Part shown: one piece after another, positions 2,549-26,193 of the stretch
Numbering within the stretch: position 1 is the first letter of the stretch
Layout of the letters: each line of letters opens with the position of its first letter
Virus record (IMG/VR): IMGVR_UViG_3300017963_000288
Span: 1-63,067 of that record
Length of the DNA stretch: 63,067 nucleotides
Source of the DNA: a virus
Lineage: Duplodnaviria; Caudoviricetes
Reading direction: 5' to 3' (one strand)
Program-made: the position numbers and the translations under genes
Notes under the pieces: generated by a model
Told to the model about the DNA's origin: nothing
Seen by the model: the letters and a program-made list of their open reading frames with translations, nothing else
The model's database searches: none

Positions 2549-3142
2549 TTATGACCGTATCTTGTATTCAAGTCCGTGGGATTGGCAGAACGCAGTAAGA
2601 TCGCTTTTGATGGCCTCGTCGTTGGCCTGTTCTGCCGTAATGGGGATGGCGATCAATAATGGCGAATCACTGAACTGTTCGCCCTCGGCGAACCCGGCCG
2701 TCTCACTCAGATAGTCCACGTTCAACGTGTTTTCCGGCATGATCCGATCAAAGACGTGTTGAAGGTTATCCACGTCCGTATGGATGTCGGCAAGTAGGAG
2801 TGACAATGCCTTCTCGTCCATCTTCGCCAAACCAGCGATAGGATCAAGAGCCGCGAGGATTTTCTTTTCCTGTTCTTCGGTCCAGGAACCGACGAGTACC
2901 GGCATCCGACCATCGACCAAATGAGCCGGATCGACCGCCTTTCGTAGGTGGCCGTCGATCAATCTTCCCGTCCGCTCGTTGTAGAGTGCCGCCCCCGCCC
3001 AACCGACCTCCGTCAACAGCCCGTCCAATCCACTCGTCTGCTCCGATGGATGCAGCCGCCAATTCGCTGGGTTGTCGGCCAATTCTTCCGGCGTCCTCCA
3101 TTCCAACCGCAGAGGCAAAGTTGTCTCGCTATCATTGCTCAT
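2549..3142 (-). CDS. ParB/Srx-like N-terminal domain protein
   Basis: NPANWRLHP...VGW...LIDGHLR motif, typical of ParB-like domains fused or adjacent to phage DNA-modification enzymes. Confidence 0.75.
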   Translation of the reverse strand: MSNDSETTLPLRLEWRTPEELADNPANWRLHPSEQTSGLDGLLTEVGWAGAALYNERTGRLIDGHLRKAVDPAHLVDGRMPVLVGSWTEEQEKKILAALDPIAGLAKMDEKALSLLLADIHTDVDNLQHVFDRIMPENTLNVDYLSETAGFAEGEQFSDSPLLIAIPITAEQANDEAIKSDLTAFCQSHGLEYKIRS

Positions 3143-3725
3143 CGGTCGTTTCTCCATTTTTGCTTGGCGGCTTTCCATTGCCGCTACCGGGGGGGTATTG
3201 TGTCGACTCCTCGGCGGCCTGTTCTGCCGCCGCCCTTTCAATTGCCTCGTAAATGCCTTCTCTCGTCATCACGTTTGCCCGCTTCTCTTGCTCGATCTTG
3301 ACGACCATCTGCATGAGGTTCGTCGGTTGCGTCGTCTGTTTGGCGAGGATAGCCAACTCCTGCTTCTTTAGTAGCAGTTCAAGCAACCGAATCTTCTGTG
3401 CTCGCAATTGGACCGCCACCCGCAGCCCTGCCATCCGGATGCGATCTTCGTGCTTGTATGGAGCCCGCTGGCGTTCTTCCTTTGTCATCGCTTCCGTGAC
3501 TTGCTTTTGGGCTGCCGCCTCCATTGCAAGCTGTTCGGCGAATACGGCCGTATCAATCTGTTGCTTGTCTGACCCCCAATCGTTCCGCAAAGCCTGTTCC
3601 AGTAAACGAAGGTCGCCGCGCAACCGATGTAAGTCAGAGCCGAGGTCACTCGATCCAAAAGGTTCCCCTACCCCGGAATGGTCGGCTGCTTCCGGCTGCG
3701 ATTCGTCGTGTGGTTCGGTGGACAT
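3132..3725 (-). CDS. hypothetical helical protein (possible terminase small subunit by position only)
   Basis: Long ORF overlapping the next start; no diagnostic motif. Confidence 0.5.
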   Translation of the reverse strand: MSTEPHDESQPEAADHSGVGEPFGSSDLGSDLHRLRGDLRLLEQALRNDWGSDKQQIDTAVFAEQLAMEAAAQKQVTEAMTKEERQRAPYKHEDRIRMAGLRVAVQLRAQKIRLLELLLKKQELAILAKQTTQPTNLMQMVVKIEQEKRANVMTREGIYEAIERAAAEQAAEESTQYPPGSGNGKPPSKNGETTDEQ

Positions 3726-5965: not shown

Positions 5966-6012
5966 TAAACAAAAACAAAAGGGGTCGCGCGGGCGTCTTT
6001 TCCCGCGCGACC
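5966..6012 (-). terminator. rho-independent terminator
   Basis: 11-bp perfect stem GGTCGCGCGGG/CCCGCGCGACC followed by CCTTTTGTTTTTGTTT on the minus strand. Confidence 0.8.
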
Positions 6013-6027
6013 AACCACCCGGCTATT

Positions 6028-6483
6028 TCAGGGCCGTTCGTCGATCCGGAATGGTTTGAAAGGAGCAAGGCCGCGAAGCCTTGCGGCGAGCGTGGGACGG
6101 CCCATGACGCCCACTCCAGTATTGCTCGCCGATACTATGGCATGGCGCACGACATGCCTACCATGCGCCACCAGCCAACTGTGTTCATCGGCAATCGCAT
6201 TCTCGCGATCCCCATAACAACCCCATGTCGGGCCGTTGATGATGTTGATCCGCCAATCGCACCGCCAGCGGCGAGTCCATCCTGCAATATGGCTCTCGTC
6301 GGGCACGCATGCTCGCAATAGGCGAAATAGTACACGCAAGAGAAGGGACACCGGCTCGATGTGCGACAAGCGGATGCGAGCGCCGGAGCCGAGGGCGTTC
6401 TCAAGGGAGTCTAGTTCCCTCGACCCCAACCATTCGCACGACCCATCGCGTCGGATCGTAATTGCGATTTCAGTGGTAGACAC
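6028..6483 (-). CDS. hypothetical protein, last gene of the AAA/DUF2997 module
   Basis: ITIRRDG...RLSHIEP...W pattern; overlaps the DUF2997-like gene. Confidence 0.6.
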   Translation of the reverse strand: MSTTEIAITIRRDGSCEWLGSRELDSLENALGSGARIRLSHIEPVSLLLRVLFRLLRACVPDESHIAGWTRRWRCDWRINIINGPTWGCYGDRENAIADEHSWLVAHGRHVVRHAIVSASNTGVGVMGRPTLAARLRGLAPFKPFRIDERP

Positions 6484-6655
6484 GGTGCCCCTCCCCTCGC
6501 TCGTGATACTCGGGCGTCAGGCGATCCCCGTCCACAACACCAAGTGATTGCTCCAGCCCCTTCGTGAGGTCTTTGCATCCCTTTCCCTTGACTCCCTTTA
6601 CCTCGATTTCCGTCGCACCGTCTTGGGTGACTGTGATAATTACCTGCTGGCTCAT
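6470..6655 (-). CDS. DUF2997-like small protein
   Basis: IIITVTQDGATEIEVKGVKGKGCKDLTKGLEQSLG-type pattern (VIITV...GxxCxxxTxxLExxLG). Confidence 0.75.
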   Translation of the reverse strand: MSQQVIITVTQDGATEIEVKGVKGKGCKDLTKGLEQSLGVVDGDRLTPEYHERGEGHRVYH

Positions 6656-6691: not shown

Positions 6692-6892
6692 TCAATAATT
6701 ACTGGTTATATCTTCGAGCGTACCAGTAATTTCCTCAAGTTGCATTATGCAATCTTCAATCTGCTCGCCTTGCGCGGAGCAGCGGAAATTATCGGGGAGG
6801 TTTTCGAGGACTTCCAGTTCCTCCGCCAAGACCTCGTTCATGATGTCGAGCGCCTCACCGAGGCGCTTGCGGCGTGCTGCGTTCATTTTCAC
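6692..6892 (-). CDS. hypothetical phage protein
   Basis: MNAARRKRL...ENLPDNFR..QGE pattern, common among small phage proteins. Confidence 0.65.
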   Translation of the reverse strand: MKMNAARRKRLGEALDIMNEVLAEELEVLENLPDNFRCSAQGEQIEDCIMQLEEITGTLEDITSNY

Positions 6893-6898
6893 TCCCCC

Positions 6899-7297
6899 CT
6901 ATTTGTAGGCGACGAGTTGGAGTCGTCCATCGTCAAGCCGTTTCTCGCGGAAGCGAAACCCCTTGCGACTCAGCTTCTTCTTCGCGAGTGCCTTGACGTA
7001 GTTCTCGTTCAAGTGCTGCAACTGTGGGCCCAGCACCTTGTCGATTACGCGACCATAGCTGTCGTAGGCGAGCGTGTAGCCGTTCGTCTCTTTGTTATGG
7101 CTGTCCTTTGCCTGAACGACGCCGATTTCGTAGTTCGTTCCGGGTACTCTGATGACGTGCTCGCATGGCGATTTTCGACCGGACCAATACCGATGCTCTT
7201 TCAATCCGCGAACGAACTCACAGCCAAGCCCCCGAACGACCGACTCCAGCACGTTAAGGTCATTGACCTCCAGTTTGATTGATACTACATGACTCAC
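6899..7297 (-). CDS. DUF1257-like (Ycf35-like) protein
   Basis: GTG start after an AAAGGAG RBS; SHVVSIKLEVNDLNVL...YEIGV...YD; module context. Confidence 0.7.
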   Translation of the reverse strand: MSHVVSIKLEVNDLNVLESVVRGLGCEFVRGLKEHRYWSGRKSPCEHVIRVPGTNYEIGVVQAKDSHNKETNGYTLAYDSYGRVIDKVLGPQLQHLNENYVKALAKKKLSRKGFRFREKRLDDGRLQLVAYK

Positions 7298-7361
7298 GAT
7301 AGGCTCCTTTGTTCTAGTTTCAGTGTTAATTATACCATACCTTGCCCCGTTTGTGCCCGAT

Positions 7362-8261
7362 CTACTCATCATCCTCGAAACTGACGATCCTGCCGGGGCC
7401 ATCGGCCAAAAGCGTGTGCAATTGCTTGACGGCACCGTCCAGCGTTTCTTTGACCGAATCCCTGACGCCTCGGTTCGTTCGCAGGTCGTCCAGACTCTTG
7501 CCGTCCAGGGCCGAACGGATCGTATTGACGACGCTACCGAGGTCCTTGTCGTCCAGAATGTCGCGCTTATCAAATAAGGCTAACCACTCAAGGACTTTCC
7601 GCAATGTTCCCGGTTGCAGCGTTTGTCGGTGTCCGTTATCTTTCACGCCAAGAGCGTGCGCCAATTTCTCCGCGAGTCCGGCGATCCCTTCGCGAAGTGC
7701 AATCTTCGCCTCGTCGGCAAGGGCCGTCAACTCGACCTGTACTCTGTCGCGCTCTTTGGCGTAGAGGTATTCGCCGATCTGTGATGCGCCAGGCGTGGCC
7801 CATTGCGTGACTCGTTTCTCCACCCAGAACGCCCGCCGCAAGGCGCTCACGCTCGGGTAATCCGCCTCGTTGAACTGGTTCGCGAGTGCCGCCCTCGCAA
7901 TTTCCTTCTGGGCGGGATACACAACGAGAAACGCCTCGACGGCCTCTTGGTATTTTTCCTCATCCACCAATACGCGGTCGTATGCCTGTTCGAGCAAACT
8001 GATCGGAATCAAGTGCCGCCCCGTCTTGAATGGCCCATGCAATTCAAGGTCGCGCAGATATGAGCGACATGCGGAGGCGATCTTGCAGATGTACTTGTAC
8101 TCGGGCGACTCGACGATACGCTTGTTCAACCCGAGTTGCGACTTGTCCGCAGAAGTCTCGATTTCTGCCATGTCGCCGCGTCGATGGATTCCCGGCCGAT
8201 GGAAAACGACCTCCAGAATCACGGTGCCTTGTTCGAGTGCGTTGACTGTTGCGCTAGTCAT
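7362..8261 (-). CDS. DUF3150-like protein
   Basis: Helical ~300 aa protein with FNEADYPSVSALRRAF motif, directly after the AAA gene. Confidence 0.65.
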   Translation of the reverse strand: MTSATVNALEQGTVILEVVFHRPGIHRRGDMAEIETSADKSQLGLNKRIVESPEYKYICKIASACRSYLRDLELHGPFKTGRHLIPISLLEQAYDRVLVDEEKYQEAVEAFLVVYPAQKEIARAALANQFNEADYPSVSALRRAFWVEKRVTQWATPGASQIGEYLYAKERDRVQVELTALADEAKIALREGIAGLAEKLAHALGVKDNGHRQTLQPGTLRKVLEWLALFDKRDILDDKDLGSVVNTIRSALDGKSLDDLRTNRGVRDSVKETLDGAVKQLHTLLADGPGRIVSFEDDE

Positions 8262-8356: not shown

Positions 8357-9895
8357 TCACTCCGGATCGGCAACGCGACGCCCTCGCCCCCGTTTCGGTT
8401 TCTCGTAGACGCCGGGTTTGCTTGCCGATAGGTATTTGCCAGCCGCTTCTTCACGCAGAGCGTTTATGGCTGTCGCCTCAATACGCCCCTGTGGAATCAC
8501 AAGCGGCGCGACCTCATCTAACGGCTTGTCGAACCGCCACGCCTTATCCACGCACCGCTGAATATTCCGCCCGACCCAACCATCGTCCATGCCATTCCTG
8601 ACGGTCCCTTTGACATCCTCGTATTTCTTGAGCCAGACGTCCCATATTGCGGATCGCTCTTTTGCGTCCGGCAGATCGAAAAAGAATGTGTCGGTGAACC
8701 GTGAACGCAACGCCGTATCCAGTCCACGGATACTGTTGCTCGTTGCGATCCATAGAGCGTTATCACTCCCAACGGCACTCACCACTTTCAACGCCGTGCG
8801 AAGATACCCGCCAGACCGTCCGACCAACTCGTGTTTCATCGCACCCATGTTGATCCGTATGACGAGCCGCCCGAACTCTGCGCCGACAGCTTTCGCAAAC
8901 GCCGACTTCCCACTCCCGGCGACGCCCAACAACATCAGACCATAAACGCCGTGGTCCTCCATGTAAGTTAGTGTCTCACCGAGTTGTTCGGCGTTGACTC
9001 CGCTTGTGTCACCCGTGTGACCAAGACCGGACTTTTCGATTTCATCCAACCACACAACAACCTCTGGTGGCTTGCGTCCGGTCATCAGTTGTCTTGCGTA
9101 CTCCTTTACGCTGTCGAGGCCACCCAGACTCTCGAACGTCTCGCCACCACGATAGACGGACAAGCCGCGAGTCTGTTCGATCAACGCCGTTTTCGTTTGC
9201 CACAAGTGAGCGATGTCAATGCCGTCCTTGCGGAGTGCCATCGCCGTGGCCTGTTCGGCCGAAAACGCCGGGAGCCCTCGAACCGCCTCAACGCTACGCA
9301 ACAGCGTATCCCTATCCATGATCGTGCGTTTAGACGTCCCCGTGCCCTTGCATTTTTCGCACTCCAGCCCCAGCGCAAGGCCAGTCCCGCCACACCCTCC
9401 ACACAGACTCGCGGACTGATCGAGTTTTGCGACGATTTCCGTCAGGTGTTCTGTGTCTGGTAACGGCTCGTCGAGAACAACGATGTCGTCCTTGAGCAGC
9501 GCAGGCAGATCAATCGTAGATTGAACGATGATAAGCATCCGGCGATCCAATTTCAGTTGATCGCGCAGATTCCAGACGGCCTGTTGTACGTGTGGGTTCC
9601 GCTCGAAAAACTCGCACCCGTTCAACATACATGCGATTCCACGCTCCGGCAATTCTCGCGAGCACCACATCAGAAATTCCACCGGCTCGGTGCAATCGTG
9701 CAAATCATCCGTGATGATTTCCTCGCCGCCCTCGTTGACGCCCACGACGCCGCGTACACAATCCCACATGACGATGGGGCCATTCTTCAATCCCTTCGCC
9801 AATTGTATCACGCATGCGCCGGGGTCCGGCGTTGTGATGGCGACAATTGGAACGGCCGCTTGGCGAGCAAGACTCAACTCTTTGACGAAATTCAT
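8357..9895 (-). CDS. Ycf46-like AAA+ ATPase with rearranged core and CxxCxGxG zinc-finger insert
   Basis: LGGLDSVK, WLDEIEK (Walker B), GVAGSGKS (Walker A), IATSN (sensor 1), RFTDTFFFDLP. Confidence 0.9.
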   Translation of the reverse strand: MNFVKELSLARQAAVPIVAITTPDPGACVIQLAKGLKNGPIVMWDCVRGVVGVNEGGEEIITDDLHDCTEPVEFLMWCSRELPERGIACMLNGCEFFERNPHVQQAVWNLRDQLKLDRRMLIIVQSTIDLPALLKDDIVVLDEPLPDTEHLTEIVAKLDQSASLCGGCGGTGLALGLECEKCKGTGTSKRTIMDRDTLLRSVEAVRGLPAFSAEQATAMALRKDGIDIAHLWQTKTALIEQTRGLSVYRGGETFESLGGLDSVKEYARQLMTGRKPPEVVVWLDEIEKSGLGHTGDTSGVNAEQLGETLTYMEDHGVYGLMLLGVAGSGKSAFAKAVGAEFGRLVIRINMGAMKHELVGRSGGYLRTALKVVSAVGSDNALWIATSNSIRGLDTALRSRFTDTFFFDLPDAKERSAIWDVWLKKYEDVKGTVRNGMDDGWVGRNIQRCVDKAWRFDKPLDEVAPLVIPQGRIEATAINALREEAAGKYLSASKPGVYEKPKRGRGRRVADPE

Positions 9896-18129: not shown

Positions 18130-18333
18130 TCATAGTATCGCTTTCAACAGGGCGTGGCGTTGAAAGTCATCGACAGACACCCCAAAAACCCGCGTCCAGT
18201 TTACACCGGACGCGGGCGGCTTTTCTACCCAACCCCGAGTCAACAACAACTGCACAAGTTGTTTGGGCTCCTTGGGTTTAGGTAACGTCGGCCCACTATG
18301 GACCGGCGAGATAATCGGCGGCAAGGAACTCAA
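18130..18333 (-). CDS. hypothetical protein
   Basis: Small ORF in the minus-strand chain. Confidence 0.35.
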   Translation of the reverse strand: MSSLPPIISPVHSGPTLPKPKEPKQLVQLLLTRGWVEKPPASGVNWTRVFGVSVDDFQRHALLKAIL

Positions 18334-18997
18334 CGCATCGCCCCTGGCTTATTTCGGGGCCATCGTCCGCATGCCGCTGCTTCATTCGCTGCAACGCTTG
18401 GTCGAAAATCTCCCGCTGTTCTTTGGTGACGCTAATTGGTCGCCCCATGGTGGGCCGCTCTGAATCGTCCGAGATTGGCCCCTGGACGCCCTGGCTGACC
18501 ATGGGGATGGATTGTCCTATTCGAGGTCTTGCTGCCGTTAGCGTGGACGAGGCGGGCTCTGACGGCAATTCTGGGGGGATTAGGTCGGCAATCAGTCCAT
18601 CTAATTGCCCATCGGTCCATCCAAGTCCAGACAACGACACGCCTTCGCTCTGGAGCCGGTCGAGGATGTCGGACAATTCCGGCATATTCCAGGACGCTAG
18701 TTCTGCCGTTCGATTCAATGTCACAGCTAGAGCATCGGCCTCTATTTCGCTCACTTCCAAGAATACGACGCGGCAGAACGGCCATTTTAGCTCACGCATG
18801 GCCGCGTAGCGACCACAGCCATGAATGATCGTCTTATCGGCTTTGCGTACGAGGATCGGCTCTGGTTGGCCGAACGTCCGCAGGCTCTCTTTGATCGCGG
18901 CGATATTTTCTGCCGAGTGCTTGCGCGGGTTCTGCTCGGGCAGCGACAATTCGCGCAGGGCCACTTGCTCGATCTTTAGGTTCTGACCGCGAGCCAT
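18296..18997 (-). CDS. ParB-like nuclease-domain protein
   Basis: NPRKHS..NIAAIKESLRTFGQPEPILV...IIHGCGRYAA...LNRTAELASW. Confidence 0.85.
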   Translation of the reverse strand: MARGQNLKIEQVALRELSLPEQNPRKHSAENIAAIKESLRTFGQPEPILVRKADKTIIHGCGRYAAMRELKWPFCRVVFLEVSEIEADALAVTLNRTAELASWNMPELSDILDRLQSEGVSLSGLGWTDGQLDGLIADLIPPELPSEPASSTLTAARPRIGQSIPMVSQGVQGPISDDSERPTMGRPISVTKEQREIFDQALQRMKQRHADDGPEISQGRCVEFLAADYLAGP

Positions 18998-18998
18998 A

Positions 18999-19457
18999 TC
19001 ATCCCTTCGAGCCGTTCGACTTCCATGCGCTGACCGATCCGAACAAGCGGACGGCCATCCACATGCACCAGCGGCGCCACAACGGTACGCCGAGGCGGTG
19101 CATCGCATCGCGAAAGATCGCATCAGCCAGCCATCGCGAGCACCACGGAACCGCAATGGAGTAGAGGTAATCGTGAAGCACGGCCGCTCGATTCCATTTG
19201 CCGGAGGGCGGGAAGATCGACCACAGCGGGATACCGAGGTAGTGTGTCCATCGTGGGATACGACGGAGAATCCAATTCGGCAGCGACCCTACGCCGATCC
19301 AACGAGGTACGCTCGCAAAGTCGGTGATGAATCCGGCTGGCACGGTCAGCGTGTGGCCGGGGAAGACTTCGTATTCCAGCGGCTCCAATAATTTCCAACG
19401 CTGCCGACCATCGACAACATCGTATTCTTCAAGTCGCAGCTTTCCGCTGAACTTCAC
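18999..19457 (-). CDS. DUF1353-like protein
   Basis: VPAGFITDFASVP...AAVLHDYLY...ADAIF...AVRLFG. Confidence 0.85.
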   Translation of the reverse strand: MKFSGKLRLEEYDVVDGRQRWKLLEPLEYEVFPGHTLTVPAGFITDFASVPRWIGVGSLPNWILRRIPRWTHYLGIPLWSIFPPSGKWNRAAVLHDYLYSIAVPWCSRWLADAIFRDAMHRLGVPLWRRWCMWMAVRLFGSVSAWKSNGSKG

Positions 19458-22270: not shown

Positions 22271-22369
22271 TGAGCGCATGGCTATGGCCACAAAATCACC
22301 CCCCCCGTTGGGGCAAACAACGTGATAATTTATCAGGTTGCCCCGCCAATCACGAAGGAGTACGGACGC

Positions 22370-23341
22370 ATGAGTATCAAAAATGTACGGATCGACCGGA
22401 TTGAAGTTGACCTCTCCGTTTTGCCTCGCTGCAACGAGAACGACCCACTGATTACGGAATACGCCAACCTACGCCGAGTCGGTATTGAGTTTCCACCAAT
22501 CGTGATCTTCCGCGACGCCGATGGTGTGCATTGGCTGGCCGATGGTCACAAGCGGCTTATGGCAGAACGGACCTTGGAAAACAACGTAATACGTGCATCC
22601 GTCCGGAAGGGTGACCAGAGTCGTGCCCGCTGGTTCGCGGCTGGAGCCAACAGCGAACACGGGCAGCGAATGACCACCGCCGATTGCAGACAGGCGATTC
22701 AGAATTGTCTCAACGACAAAACGCTTGCCGATAAGAGTGACGCCGTGATTGCCGATCACATCGGTTGTAGTAGATCGACGGTTCAAAAGGTCCGCCACAC
22801 GTTAGAAAAACAAGGTACCATTCAAAAGGTCGAGAAACGCACGGGCAAAGATGGGCGCACGCGAGCATCGAGTTCACCACAACCAACCACGGCCCGCCAG
22901 GGTCGCCCCTCTACTGCCAAAACACAAGTCATAAAGGCGAAAGAATTGAAGGACGAACTCGGGCAGGAGTGTCCCGAGTTTCTTCGGCAAATCATCGCCG
23001 ACACACAAGACATCAAACGGCTGCTGACGGAGCACGCGGCGATCTATCAGCGATGGGAACAATTTGCGAGTTTGAAGAGTGGGGCGGGGCAAGGGTTGCA
23101 TGTTCGGTCCATGATCGACGTTGGGAAGGAAGAACGGCTCGCGGCACAGAATGGCATGTTCTATTGTCGCTGCCCAAATTGTTGGGATAAGGCCACACGA
23201 CCCACGAAATGCCTTTGCGGTGGCAAAGGTAAGGGCGAAAAAAAATACGTCGATCCAAAAGGTGAAAAACACGACAAAGCCCCCGGTTGGTTGACGCGAG
23301 AAGAATACCACGCATACCTGTCACACACACGAGGGGCATGA
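22370..23341 (+). CDS. ParB-like N-terminal domain + HTH protein with C-terminal Cys cluster
   Basis: FPPIVIF...WLADGHKRL...ANSEHG; SDAVIADHIGCSRSTVQKVR; AAGGAG RBS. Confidence 0.85.
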   Translation: MSIKNVRIDRIEVDLSVLPRCNENDPLITEYANLRRVGIEFPPIVIFRDADGVHWLADGHKRLMAERTLENNVIRASVRKGDQSRARWFAAGANSEHGQRMTTADCRQAIQNCLNDKTLADKSDAVIADHIGCSRSTVQKVRHTLEKQGTIQKVEKRTGKDGRTRASSSPQPTTARQGRPSTAKTQVIKAKELKDELGQECPEFLRQIIADTQDIKRLLTEHAAIYQRWEQFASLKSGAGQGLHVRSMIDVGKEERLAAQNGMFYCRCPNCWDKATRPTKCLCGGKGKGEKKYVDPKGEKHDKAPGWLTREEYHAYLSHTRGA

Positions 23342-23723: not shown

Positions 23724-23918
23724 ATGCGGTGCGACAGGTGCGGTGAGGCAAGCGGCGCGTTTACGATGTCGCGTTTTAATACCGAGATGATCTGCCTGCA
23801 ATGCGAAGAAAAGGAGCAGGCGCATCCCGAATACAAGAGAGCCTGCGAAGTCGAGCACGCGCAAGTGATAGCGGGCAACTACAATTATCCGGGTATCGGC
23901 AAGCCGGAGGACTTATGA
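23724..23918 (+). CDS. small zinc-binding phage protein
   Basis: CDRCG...MSRFNTEMICLQC...HPEY...GNYNYPGIG; AGGAG RBS. Confidence 0.75.
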   Translation: MRCDRCGEASGAFTMSRFNTEMICLQCEEKEQAHPEYKRACEVEHAQVIAGNYNYPGIGKPEDL

Positions 23919-25786
23919 CTCTGCGACAATATCAGCGCGACGCAATGATGGCGGTCATTGCAGACATTCAGTCAAAGGAACGTACACTTGTCTCCATGCC
24001 AACCGGCGTAGGCAAGACGGTGTTGGGTGCGGCACTTGCCGACTGGTGGGGCGAGAACGCCCATCGTTTCGGCATGTCGGCTCGCGTCCTTTGGTTGGCA
24101 CACAGGGACGAGCTGGTCTGGCAAGCGGCGAGAGCGCTTGAACTCGCGACCGGCGAGGAAGTTGCGGTGGAGAAATCCGATTCGCGAGCGAGAGCGACAG
24201 CGGCAATGTTCGACCGGCGCATCGTGGTTGGGAGCGTCCAGACATTGTTTCAAGAGGACCGTCGTGATAGCTTTGGACACGACGAGTTCGGCCTGATTGT
24301 AGCGGACGAGGCTCATCACTACGTTGCTCCCGCTTTTCGCGACGTAATTGACTATTTTCACGCAGCCAAGACGGTTGGATTGACGGCGACAACGGATCGA
24401 CACGACCAGATTAGTCTGGGTCAGTTGTTCGAGGGATGCGCGTACCACTATGACGTGATGCAGGCAATCGAGGACGGCTGGCTCTGCCGATTGCGCCAGG
24501 AGTACGTTGAGGTGGAGGGCCTTGATTGGTCTTCGGCCCGCAAGAGCAGCACGGGCGACTTGTCGGCAACGGACATAGACCGGATCATAAACGAAGAAAC
24601 GGTGCTCCACAAGATCGTGGTGCCTTGCGTTCGCTTGGCTGGTGATCGTCCGACTCTCGTCTTTACCCCGAGCGTCGCGACCGCGAAGGCGATAGCCGCG
24701 ATCATCCCACGCTACACAAAGGCGGGAGCGGCTGCGATCTGCGGGGACACCCCGGAGGATGAACGCCGCCGATTGGTCGATCAATACAAAGAGGGGCATT
24801 TCCAGTTTCTTGTCAACTGTATGGTCTTGACCGAGGGGTTCGATGCCCCAGCGACGGCCTGTATCGTGATGGCAAGGCCAACGAACTCTCGGACGCTCTA
24901 TGCACAGGCAATCGGCCGAGGTTTGCGCGGTGGGCACCGCTGCCCGATTCCTGGCAAGAAGGATTGTCTGATAGTCGATCTTGTCGGAGCATCGCTCAAG
25001 CACCAACTCTGCACGTCCTCTGACATACTGACGGGCAACTTTCACGAGGTCGTGCAAGAGGCCGCAAGGGGCATGCTCCGCGAGCCGCGCGAAGATGACG
25101 AGGAATCCCCTGATGTTGTCAATGCGGTCTTGGCAGCGATTGCCAACGAGGAACAGCTACGCCGGGAGCGACGCAAGAAACTGATTGCAGAGGCGAAACT
25201 CAAGCGGACAGCAGTAGACCCGTTCGGCGTCCTCGCGATGCCGGAAGTCGATCTGCCGGAGCCGGGTTTCTGGGGCGATGAATTTGTAACAGAGAAGGCA
25301 AAGGCCACGCTCGAACAAGCAGGAGTGAATACCAAGGGATTGACGCGGCTTGAGGGTGAGCGATTGGTTCGGGAGTTACGAAGGCGGGCCGAGTGTGGTA
25401 TATGCACATTCAAACAGGCGAGGCACTTGCGAGCGTGGGGTTTCGATCCGTCTATGAGTTTGATTCAAGCGAACGTGATTATCAGTAAACAATTTGCTCG
25501 GCGGAGTCGAGCGTACATTCAACCGGAGGACGCAAAGCGAAAGCACTACGCGAAGAAGCGGGGGCAAATGGTCACATACGAGGAATTGGCTTGGACGCCT
25601 ATGTGGTCGCTTGGCGAGGGCATCGAGTGTGTCGTCTGTCGCGATGGGGGCGAGCCGGTCAATCACAGAACAACCAAGCGAACGCATTTCAAGCATGGGC
25701 GAGTGGATGGAAACCTCGTCACGCTAGTAGACGACCGTGGATGGACGATCCAAACAACGGTAGATAAAGTGGACAGACTAAAATGA
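23915..25786 (+). CDS. superfamily 2 DEAH helicase
   Basis: LRQYQ, PTGVGKT, DEAHH, GLTAT, LTEGFDAP, QAIGRGLR. Confidence 0.95.
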   Translation: MTLRQYQRDAMMAVIADIQSKERTLVSMPTGVGKTVLGAALADWWGENAHRFGMSARVLWLAHRDELVWQAARALELATGEEVAVEKSDSRARATAAMFDRRIVVGSVQTLFQEDRRDSFGHDEFGLIVADEAHHYVAPAFRDVIDYFHAAKTVGLTATTDRHDQISLGQLFEGCAYHYDVMQAIEDGWLCRLRQEYVEVEGLDWSSARKSSTGDLSATDIDRIINEETVLHKIVVPCVRLAGDRPTLVFTPSVATAKAIAAIIPRYTKAGAAAICGDTPEDERRRLVDQYKEGHFQFLVNCMVLTEGFDAPATACIVMARPTNSRTLYAQAIGRGLRGGHRCPIPGKKDCLIVDLVGASLKHQLCTSSDILTGNFHEVVQEAARGMLREPREDDEESPDVVNAVLAAIANEEQLRRERRKKLIAEAKLKRTAVDPFGVLAMPEVDLPEPGFWGDEFVTEKAKATLEQAGVNTKGLTRLEGERLVRELRRRAECGICTFKQARHLRAWGFDPSMSLIQANVIISKQFARRSRAYIQPEDAKRKHYAKKRGQMVTYEELAWTPMWSLGEGIECVVCRDGGEPVNHRTTKRTHFKHGRVDGNLVTLVDDRGWTIQTTVDKVDRLK

Positions 25787-26193
25787 GCGCAACAACACAT
25801 ATGCGAAGACGGTTTGAGTTTGTCGGCAACGGCAGCAGCAAGTTTTGGCAGGTTGAGGTTGTCGATCAAACACCGGGCGATTGTCGCCTCGTGATTGGGT
25901 GGGGGCGAATCGGCGCTCGTGGACAGGAGAAGGTATTTGCCTTCCGTTCGCACCGTCAGGCCACATCGGAAGCGGAACGTCGCATTATTGGAAAGCTGCG
26001 GAAGGGCTACCAAGAGGTAACGTCTGGTCGGACGTTTTCGAGCGGCGAACGCACTCGCCATCCTCAGATGGAACAAACAGTAGGTGCGGCAATTAAGCTG
26101 CCAGAAACGACAAGAGCGAAAGTCGCACGCCGGGAGCAAGGCCGCAAACCTACAACCGTCGTGCGTCAAATTGTTTTTGACGAGGATGAGTAA
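25783..26193 (+). CDS. WGR-domain protein
   Basis: SSKFWQV...WGRIGARGQ...KLRKGY. Confidence 0.9.
   Translation: MSATTHMRRRFEFVGNGSSKFWQVEVVDQTPGDCRLVIGWGRIGARGQEKVFAFRSHRQATSEAERRIIGKLRKGYQEVTSGRTFSSGERTRHPQMEQTVGAAIKLPETTRAKVARREQGRKPTTVVRQIVFDEDE

Follow-up and report, generated by a model that had tools for sequence, protein, structure and literature searches.

The 63,067-base IMG/VR virus record IMGVR_UViG_3300017963_000288 (the whole stretch of DNA analysed here, referred to below as the window; completeness estimate 69%) encodes a 512-residue AAA ATPase (P0001; positions 8357-9895, minus strand) that resembles Ycf46, and in which the strand-helix unit carrying Walker B stands before the unit carrying Walker A. 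Alignments indicate that two adjacent blocks of the catalytic core, A (ca. 60 residues) and B (ca. 40 residues), are exchanged and that all else is colinear with canonical relatives. A large natural clade keeps all catalytic residues and yet has these two units swapped. We consider it very probable that the protein is an active two-tier ATPase of the Ycf46 lineage, that its permutation had a single origin, and that its gene heads an operon.

Order of the catalytic motifs

The reading frame at 8357-9895 (-) is uninterrupted, and its limits coincide with those of the gene described in a first-pass annotation of the window. Its translation has the order transcribed there, with Walker B before Walker A and sensor 1, the chain running through FESLGGLDSVKEYARQLMTGRKPPE, VVVWLDEIEKSGLGHTGDTSGVNAEQLGETLTYMEDHGVY, GLMLLGVAGSGKSAFAKAVGAEFGRLVIRINMGAMKHELVGRSGGYLRTALKVVSAVGSDN and ALWIATSNSIRGLDTALRSRFTDTFFFDLP. 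From the N to the C terminus, the elements are FESLGGLDSVK, helix alpha0, PPEVVVWLDEIEK (Walker B, D284/E285), GDTSGV...LTYMED, GLMLLGVAGSGKS (Walker A, K330), ...ELVGRS... (pore loop 1), ALKVVSAV, ALWIATSN (sensor 1, T385/N387), ALRSRF (R397/R399), and FFFDLP. Both consensus motifs are present, the P-loop GxxGxGK[ST] as GVAGSGKS (residues 324-331) and Walker B hhhhDE as VVVWLDE (residues 279-285), and VVVWLDEIEK (D284/E285) lies 45 residues N-terminal of GVAGSGKS (K330). The classical AAA order (Walker A, pore loop 1, Walker B, sensor 1) is not kept; it is replaced by Walker B, Walker A, pore loop 1, sensor 1.

The moved block B (residues 277-316; 8948-9067 (-)) comprises beta3 with Walker B (D284/E285, 9041-9046), the pore-loop-2 region, and alpha3, as delimited by strand 279-283 and helix 300-315 of a structural model described below. 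It is followed by block A (residues 317-377; 8765-8947 (-)), which contains beta1, the P-loop GVAGSGKS (8903-8926), alpha1, beta2, pore loop 1 (LVG), and alpha2, and was assigned from Pfam AAA positions 1-53 and from alignments to spastin and VCP. Block C (residues 378-430; 8606-8764 (-)), with beta4 and sensor 1 (T385/N387), alpha4 with R397/R399, and beta5, was aligned to the ATN...R..GRFD region of the same two proteins. The core is preceded by residues 241-276 (9068-9175 (-)), a lead-in with the GGLD motif and alpha0 (model helix 261-271) that maps to residues 213-233 of a canonical relative, and is followed by residues 431-512 (8360-8605 (-)), a helical lid (model helices 442-484) and a basic C-terminal tail (...GRGRRVADPE).

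Homologues were collected in several searches. A word-index search returned 514 relatives, the best 120 of which were listed. In an exhaustive search, the number of representative clusters fell from 3,912 at E <= 1e-3 to 1,771 at 1e-10 and to 935 at 1e-30, and E was <= 1.5e-80 for each of the best 150. A single-protein query found no relative among viral loci; an alignment query succeeded, yielding 371 relatives in IMG/VR, with 80 loci kept. When one genome of each species was scanned, 150 relatives were obtained, and again 80 loci were kept. Block order was typed with hidden Markov models (HMMs) of the individual blocks, regular-expression motif counts being too crude (many members have GxxGxAKS or similar P-loops).

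Homologues with the same order, proposed in the first-pass annotation as a check, proved to be the rule. Of the 261 proteins retrieved, window protein included, 260 have their blocks in the order B-A-C (Walker B, Walker A, sensor 1), the sole other one being a truncated sequence of 350 residues without block C. The order A-B-C was found in all 120 listed relatives of the canonical cyanobacterial Ycf46. The permuted order recurs at 80 viral loci, at 28 bacterial-genome loci, and in the cultured Tunturiibacter phage Tunturi_3. From 83 loci, rows with both A and C matches comprised 29 permuted proteins (the 28 genome loci and Tunturi_3) and 51 canonical ones; L122, L152, and L159 gave no such row. 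All 150 representatives inspected were permuted, while the 935 clusters at 50% identity (E <= 1e-30) may include canonical forms.

The catalytic motifs had been described as intact, and the family alignment bears this out. Among 340 family sequences aligned with hmmalign, E285 is Glu in all 340, D284 is Asp in 331 and Glu in 8, K330 is Lys in 338, and N387 and R399 are Asn and Arg, respectively, in 336 each; in family alignment A1, G324, G327, and K330 are invariant. Since E285, K330, N387, and R399 are nearly invariant, we conclude from the alignment that the catalytic residues are under strong selection. Some members (P0028, P0030, P0105, P0124, and P0140) are 690-900 residues long and contain intein/homing-endonuclease Pfam domains (PF14890, PF05203); in P0030 an insert of 165 residues lies within the P-loop, after the equivalent of residue 328.

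Homology of the moved block to the canonical core

Against Pfam AAA (PF00004), the protein scored 42.3 bits (cut-off 21.2) from split stretches, the best of which joined residues 320-372 to profile positions 1-53. In a single-sequence alignment to spastin, residues 318-370 and 378-427 paired with chain residues 55-106 and 158-207, and ca. 50 residues in the canonical Walker B region of spastin were skipped. ATSN (384-387) and R397/R399 aligned to ATN and R..GRF of spastin and VCP. When the 55-residue Walker B piece was used alone, no Pfam match was obtained. Permuted proteins are split by domain models and their Walker B is missed, so that they may easily be mislabelled 'inactive'.

When a profile built from 59 members of the family was compared with PDB chains (best E 2.9e-28, in the Cdc48/VCP-like group), each AAA domain of VCP-like ATPase, Cdc48, and p97 was matched in three out-of-order pieces. 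Taken in the chain order Walker A, Walker B, sensor 1, these pieces correspond to profile positions 303-351, 261-307, and 363-417. In chain 5vc7_A, for example, residues 45-93 matched positions 303-351, residues 102-148 matched 261-307, and residues 145-201 matched 363-417, and the second AAA domain behaved alike; in the Walker B piece, avvwlDEiek...sgv...lLsymeD was aligned with iifiDEids...v..rvvaqLLtlmdg. Split and out-of-order matches of this kind had been foreseen in the first-pass annotation.

The blocks also tile contiguously on the canonical ATPase of a Manganitrophus plasmid: the N block (residues 1-240) on 4-205, the alpha0 region (241-276) on 213-233, block A (317-377) on 243-300, block B (277-316) on 303-341, block C (378-430) on 345-395, and the lid on 398-457. 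In all 51 canonical relatives, block B matched the canonical Walker B block, and its match lay between those of A and C. The out-of-order profile matches, together with the contiguous tiling, lead us to regard the two blocks as exchanged, in agreement with the earlier proposal that the Walker B and Walker A units had changed places.

Predicted fold and coevolution

An AlphaFold2 model built from a 59-row alignment had a predicted local distance difference test score (pLDDT) of 94.3 and a predicted template modelling score of 0.88, with pLDDT block means of 81-96. Its elements are alpha0 (261-271), strand 279-283, helix 300-315, strand 318-324, helix 330-340, strand 344-348, helix 358-376, strand 380-386, helix 394-399, and strand 400-406, so that the core consists of five strands, each with one helix after it. 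In the model, alpha2 (358-376) is joined to the sensor 1 strand (380-386) by three residues only, with no strand in between, and therefore no other strand can occupy the beta3 position. When residues 241-488 were superposed on p97 D2 (3cf0_A) with a sequential aligner, 204 of the 248 residues aligned (Z 17.1, root-mean-square deviation 2.5 Å). The number of unaligned residues, ca. 44, equals the size of the moved block.

Mean-field direct coupling analysis (DCA) covered residues 241-432 in 336 sequences (effective number, Meff, 251; 17,578 pairs). The moved strand was coupled to beta4 by pairs 286-384, 287-386, and 281-382 (ranks 10, 21, and 27) and to beta2 by pairs 282-347 and 279-344 (ranks 32 and 51), with offsets constant for each strand pair, as for parallel neighbours; alpha3 was also coupled with alpha2, pore loop 1, and alpha4. 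Because of these pairings, the Walker B strand can be placed between beta4 and beta2, and the canonical sheet order, 5-1-4-3-2, appears to be preserved. The first-pass annotation had allowed that modelling might reveal a normal Walker B after Walker A, with DEIEK outside the active site. The model has no strand where a normal Walker B would stand, and the coevolution places the DEIEK strand within the sheet, between beta4 and beta2.

Relationship to Ycf46 and origin of the permutation

Searches of plasmids with tblastn revealed canonical genes annotated 'AAA family ATPase', with ca. 24% identity to the window protein. In the Geminocystis and Manganitrophus plasmid ATPases, Walker A precedes Walker B, and both genes adjoin annotated DUF1257 and DUF2997 genes; the Manganitrophus gene also adjoins an annotated DUF3150 gene. 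On this plasmid (CP114562; L083:5815-6737), the DUF3150 gene is matched as two overlapping open frames, which may reflect a frameshift or a split gene. The family to which the Geminocystis protein belongs is tightly conserved; a member 79% identical to this protein is named YCF46 by its source, and a chromosomally encoded protein of Synechocystis sp. PCC 7338 is 77% identical to it. A permuted member from Lignipirellula cremea carries an automatic UniRef name ending in 'protein ycf46'.

In a FastTree phylogeny of 105 rows, made from a concatenated block alignment, all 57 permuted rows were split from the 48 canonical ones by one branch (support 1.0, length 0.61). A quick IQ-TREE run with 77 rows (48 canonical and 29 permuted) likewise needed one change of order (Shimodaira-Hasegawa approximate likelihood ratio test, 100). 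Among the canonical rows, those nearest to the permuted forms were a group of sequences from metagenome-assembled Planctomycetota genomes and the Manganitrophus plasmid. Long branches were flagged on the IQ-TREE phylogeny for several rows, including L084, L083, and L132. On these trees the permuted forms make up one clan, which implies a single change. The rewired proteins thus form a large branch of the Ycf46 family that had not been described before and that is carried mostly by phages and integrated elements.

The N-terminal tier

The whole model matched p97, Cdc48, Rix7, NVL, and Drg1 with Foldseek E values of ca. 1e-13 and VIA-align Z scores of 17-18 over ca. 395 residues. With p97/Cdc48 chains containing both D1 and D2, the alignment spanned model residues 1-488 (e.g., 9yrc_A: Z 17.9, root-mean-square deviation 4.7, 395 residues); chains with D2 only aligned to residues 241-497 only. 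Residues 1-240 (9176-9895 (-)), delimited by this alignment and by the N-block HMM, gave no Pfam AAA match, and no P-loop or other Walker motif was seen in their translation. Because the whole model matches two-tier AAA unfoldases, this region is assigned, on the predicted structure, to a degenerate D1-like AAA tier. The N block is present at most canonical loci, and on two canonical Ycf46-type proteins the N-block HMM scored 63-87 bits and the alpha0 HMM 7-21 bits.

A zinc-ribbon-like CxxC...CxxC insert (CGGCGGTG...CEKCKGTG; residues 165-186; 9338-9403 (-)) is located in the lid of the D1-like domain. It gave a weak Pfam match, under the cut-off, to DnaJ_CXXCXGXG, the DnaJ central domain (E 0.019), and is found in part of the family only.

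The operon

Gene-cluster HMMs were applied to six-frame translations of 81 loci (the 80 viral loci and the window), and all matches lay on the ATPase strand. In the window, the ATPase gene is the first of a full module, followed by genes for a DUF3150-like protein, a DUF1257-like protein, a DUF2997-like protein, and a further small protein, cl3, and by a terminator-like hairpin. The DUF3150-like gene (7362-8261 (-), 299 residues) starts 96 nucleotides downstream of the ATPase gene and is found at 76 of the 81 loci, always on the ATPase strand; 19 of 49 members of this family match Pfam PF11348 (best E 2.7e-9), and the window copy does not. The DUF1257-like, or Ycf35-like, gene (6899-7318 (-), start uncertain, frame open to 7573) was detected by the cluster 2 HMM (E 5.9e-31, residues 86-223 of the open reading frame 6899-7573), and a cluster 2 representative matches Pfam DUF1257. 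The DUF2997-like gene (6470-6655 (-), 61 residues) was detected by the cluster 5 HMM (E 6.8e-17); a cluster representative matches Pfam DUF2997 at 2.3e-17. The fifth conserved gene, cl3 (6028-6483 (-), 151 residues; cluster 3 HMM, E 5.4e-25), belongs to no known family, having neither a Pfam nor a PHROG match. The hairpin at 5983-6012 (-), found by a consensus scan as a pattern match only, lies directly 3' of this last gene and has an 11-base-pair stem (10 G-C pairs) followed by a T run.

The DUF1257-like family falls into two sub-clusters, found at 39 and 33 of the 81 loci (three matched by both), as does the DUF2997-like family (44 and 30 of 81); cl3 is present at 40 of 81. In the DUF2997-like sub-cluster cl7 (30 viral loci, e.g., L002:8871-9107), the proteins have His-rich tails (HEHGH..., HHHSHDH...), and members of the other sub-cluster, window copy included, are without such a tail. 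A 66-residue acidic open reading frame lies at 6692-6892 (-), between the DUF1257-like and DUF2997-like genes. DUF1257-like and DUF2997-like genes occur beside both permuted and canonical ATPases; as the HMMs are phage-derived, partner counts beside the two types are lower bounds. In PHROGs, the ATPase matched only a group of 'unknown function' (phrog_8638), and the partner genes had no match.

A peptide of the form R-x-I/V-x-F/L-acidic tends to be shared by the C-terminal tails of the ATPases and the DUF3150-like proteins. An R-x-hydrophobic-x-hydrophobic motif was found within the last ten residues of 58 of 76 DUF3150-like proteins and 40 of 81 ATPases, compared with 73 of 1,444 other open reading frames. 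The corresponding sites in the window are 8360-8383 (-) for the ATPase, whose tail (GRRVADPE) fits the motif loosely, and 7365-7394 (-) for the DUF3150-like protein, which ends in ...PGRIVSFEDDE. A complex prediction with these two proteins (score 0.00, mark 0.32) carries no weight for or against binding. The model of the DUF3150-like protein had no PDB fold match at Foldseek E <= 0.001, and a wide VIA-align search gave generic helical-bundle matches only (Z <= 9.5).

The Tunturi_3 protein gp96 (L084:8696-9655), annotated as 'HNH endonuclease', matches the DUF3150-like HMM with E 1.3e-88, and we conclude that this annotation is probably wrong. Because gp102, gp101, and gp99 match the DUF1257-like, DUF2997-like, and cl3 HMMs, in addition to the match of gp96, the cultured phage has, by these profile matches, the whole module.

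Other genes of the window

Elsewhere, the window contains tape-measure and head-tail adaptor genes and genes for a helicase, a PD-(D/E)XK nuclease, and ParB-like proteins. Three ParB-N-like (ParB/nuclease/methyltransferase-associated) genes lie at 2549-3241 (-), 18296-19156 (-), and 22322-23341 (+). A gene for a ResIII/SNF2-type helicase is directly followed by one for a small WGR-domain protein (23801-26193 (+)). A region of ca. 20 kilobases (31011-52019 (+)) encodes glycosyltransferases, methyltransferases, two radical SAM proteins (one with a B12-binding domain), and a sulfotransferase-like protein. This region might be either an island for glycan modification carried by the phage or a piece of host DNA adjoining a prophage.

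Discussion

The observations are best explained by an active two-tier ATPase of the Ycf46 lineage that combines a degenerate D1-like N-terminal domain with a single catalytic domain of the classical AAA clade. Within the latter, transposition has brought beta3(Walker B)-alpha3 to a position before beta1-P-loop-alpha1-beta2-alpha2, changing the unit order from 1-2-3-4-5 to 3-1-2-4-5. Each strand keeps its following helix, and three loops are re-routed (alpha0 to beta3, alpha3 to beta1, and alpha2 to beta4); for this reason, the 5-1-4-3-2 sheet order and the active site appear to be retained, and all crossovers could stay right-handed, the loops being re-routed by one or two strand positions. 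The rewiring probably arose once, from a canonical Ycf46-type ancestor, and would now mark a clade carried mostly by phages and integrated elements. The exchange may have come about when the A+B segment was duplicated and the outer copies were then lost. The ATPase gene is the first in an operon with those of the DUF3150-like, DUF1257-like, and DUF2997-like proteins and one further small protein. Directly observed are the permutation and its conservation, a single change of order on the tree, and the recurrent gene partners; the predicted fold agrees with that of a normal AAA domain.

Several points weigh against this explanation. Individual Walker B pieces matched PDB chains weakly (i-Evalue 2.9 to 53); such matches carry weight through their recurrence at the expected place. 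In the DCA, an unexpected beta1-beta2 pair was present (321-346, rank 55), and the expected beta1-beta4 pairing was weak (rank 330). The sheet order was deduced from DCA, strand assignment, and a superposition given as residue ranges only, rather than being read from model coordinates. The block HMMs behind the trees derive solely from the permuted family, and the IQ-TREE run left out 28 of the 57 permuted rows. The tree is unrooted, and derivation from the canonical order is argued from all other AAA domains considered here being canonical. Intermediates of a duplication were sought with the block HMMs, and none of 381 proteins has two A or two B blocks.

That assembly or a frameshift produced the order in the window contig might be suspected from its source, a single metagenome-derived virus record with an estimated completeness of 69%. 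The frame is uninterrupted, however, and since the same order recurs at independent viral and bacterial-genome loci and in an isolated phage, misassembly is untenable. DEIEK could also be part of a linker or of the N-terminal domain rather than a working Walker B, leaving a pseudo-ATPase or a nucleotide binder only, and the best Pfam AAA stretch does exclude the segment, which by itself has no Pfam match. Yet the block matches the canonical Walker B block of all 51 canonical relatives and of VCP/Cdc48, coevolves with beta4 and beta2, and contains D284 and E285, invariant or nearly so, while the short connection between alpha2 and beta4 leaves no other candidate for beta3; this makes a non-catalytic DEIEK very unlikely.

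Alternatively, the moved block might complete the sheet of a neighbouring subunit, a domain swap that coevolution cannot separate from contacts within one chain. In the model, however, only ca. two residues separate alpha3 (end 315) from beta1 (start 318), and the monomer is predicted with confidence through the block, so that we regard such a swap as exceedingly improbable. The permutation may, finally, have arisen several times, or the canonical Ycf46-type order in the module family may be derived from the permuted one; the unrooted tree and the flagged long branches leave this a small chance. Against it, each of the two trees requires no more than a single change, with full support. The 120 close relatives of cyanobacterial Ycf46 have the canonical order without exception, as do all other AAA domains considered here, including every solved chain for which an alignment is shown.

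For the single-origin, permuted ATPase preferred here, ATP hydrolysis would be expected. Family resemblance and gene linkage suggest that the protein may act as a hexamer in the manner of Cdc48, remodelling or unfolding proteins together with its operon partners or taking these as substrates, a role that we favour slightly. A bolder proposal is that an AAA+ catalytic core is seen here for the first time in a natural permutation that is ancient, non-circular, and of single origin, and that this permutation is not neutral, having created a partner-gated unfoldase that canonical Ycf46 lacks. Because alpha0 feeds directly into the Walker B strand and not the P-loop strand, movements of the D1-like tier or of a bound partner would be transmitted mechanically to the catalytic glutamate and to pore loop 2; the partner would be the DUF3150-like protein, which shares the C-terminal R-x-I/V-x-F/L tail with the ATPase. 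We consider this proposal unlikely as a whole.

The order of elements along the AAA+ core is regarded as invariable, and the textbook order of motifs is used for recognition and annotation. The first-pass annotation had called the internal permutation rare. A full-text literature search found no paper on a permuted AAA or P-loop core, which makes rarity plausible. The passages matching 'permuted' concern methyltransferases (PMC7824862) and flavodoxin-like folds (PMC6957218). Those matching Ycf46 belong to plastid or cyanobacterial genomics or mention it as a passing annotation (PMC10954446, PMC12870095), and in the same full-text literature DUF3150 was found in one preprint only. The main text of the Tunturi virus paper (PMC11924767) contains no discussion of the ATPase.

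The clade marks a DUF3150-linked, phage-borne branch of the orphan Ycf46/Ycf35/DUF2997 system. Together with a canonical sister family that shares its partner genes, it constitutes a natural experiment on the tolerance of the P-loop fold to rewiring and on the origin of permutations, of interest for AAA+ mechanism and for fold evolution. Tunturi_3 on Tunturiibacter psychrotolerans is a cultured phage-host pair carrying the whole module, and hence a bench-testable system.

Comparison with known systems

The closest likeness is to Ycf46 (the 'SpoVK/Ycf46/Vps4 family' of automatic annotation), with which the phage ATPase shares an N-terminal domain of ca. 240 residues, GGL[DE]xxK, one catalytic AAA domain, and a lid. 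Homology can be recognised in each of the six blocks, and DUF1257 (Ycf35) and DUF2997 neighbours are shared with canonical Ycf46 types. Unlike Ycf46 proper, in which Walker A precedes Walker B in 120 of 120 cases, the window clade has Walker B before Walker A and forms a separate clan on the tree; a DUF3150-like gene accompanies 28 of 29 permuted loci, as opposed to 5 of 51 canonical ones.

In its predicted structure, the protein resembles the type II classical AAA unfoldases (Cdc48/p97/VCP-like, Rix7/NVL, and Afg2/Drg1) in having two stacked AAA-fold tiers, and Walker A, Walker B, sensor 1, and the Arg pair all align with those of the Cdc48/p97/VCP group. It differs from Cdc48/p97 in that its D1-like tier is without nucleotide motifs and its active tier has permuted core connectivity, and from Cdc48 in having no N-terminal substrate/adaptor domain, the model beginning directly with the D1-like tier. 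Its pore loop 1 is L-V-G, with Leu at the position of the aromatic residue of Cdc48-type loops. The only NCBIfam match was to the anti-phage ATPase IteA (NF042959; residues 377-454, 23.9 bits, cut-off 510), the likeness extending from sensor 1 to the lid region only. Membership of the IteA family was rejected, the score being far below the cut-off and the match reflecting general AAA similarity.

The known P-loop precedent for motif permutation is provided by the circularly permuted GTPases of the YlqF/YawG type, in which the GTPase domain is truly circularly permuted, with the order G4-G5-G1-G2-G3. As in these proteins, the motif order of a P-loop nucleoside triphosphatase is rearranged in the phage ATPase, with fold and catalysis predicted to be kept. 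In contrast to them, two adjacent internal blocks of an AAA core, of the additional strand catalytic E (ASCE) type, are swapped, and the ends of the domain stay in place.

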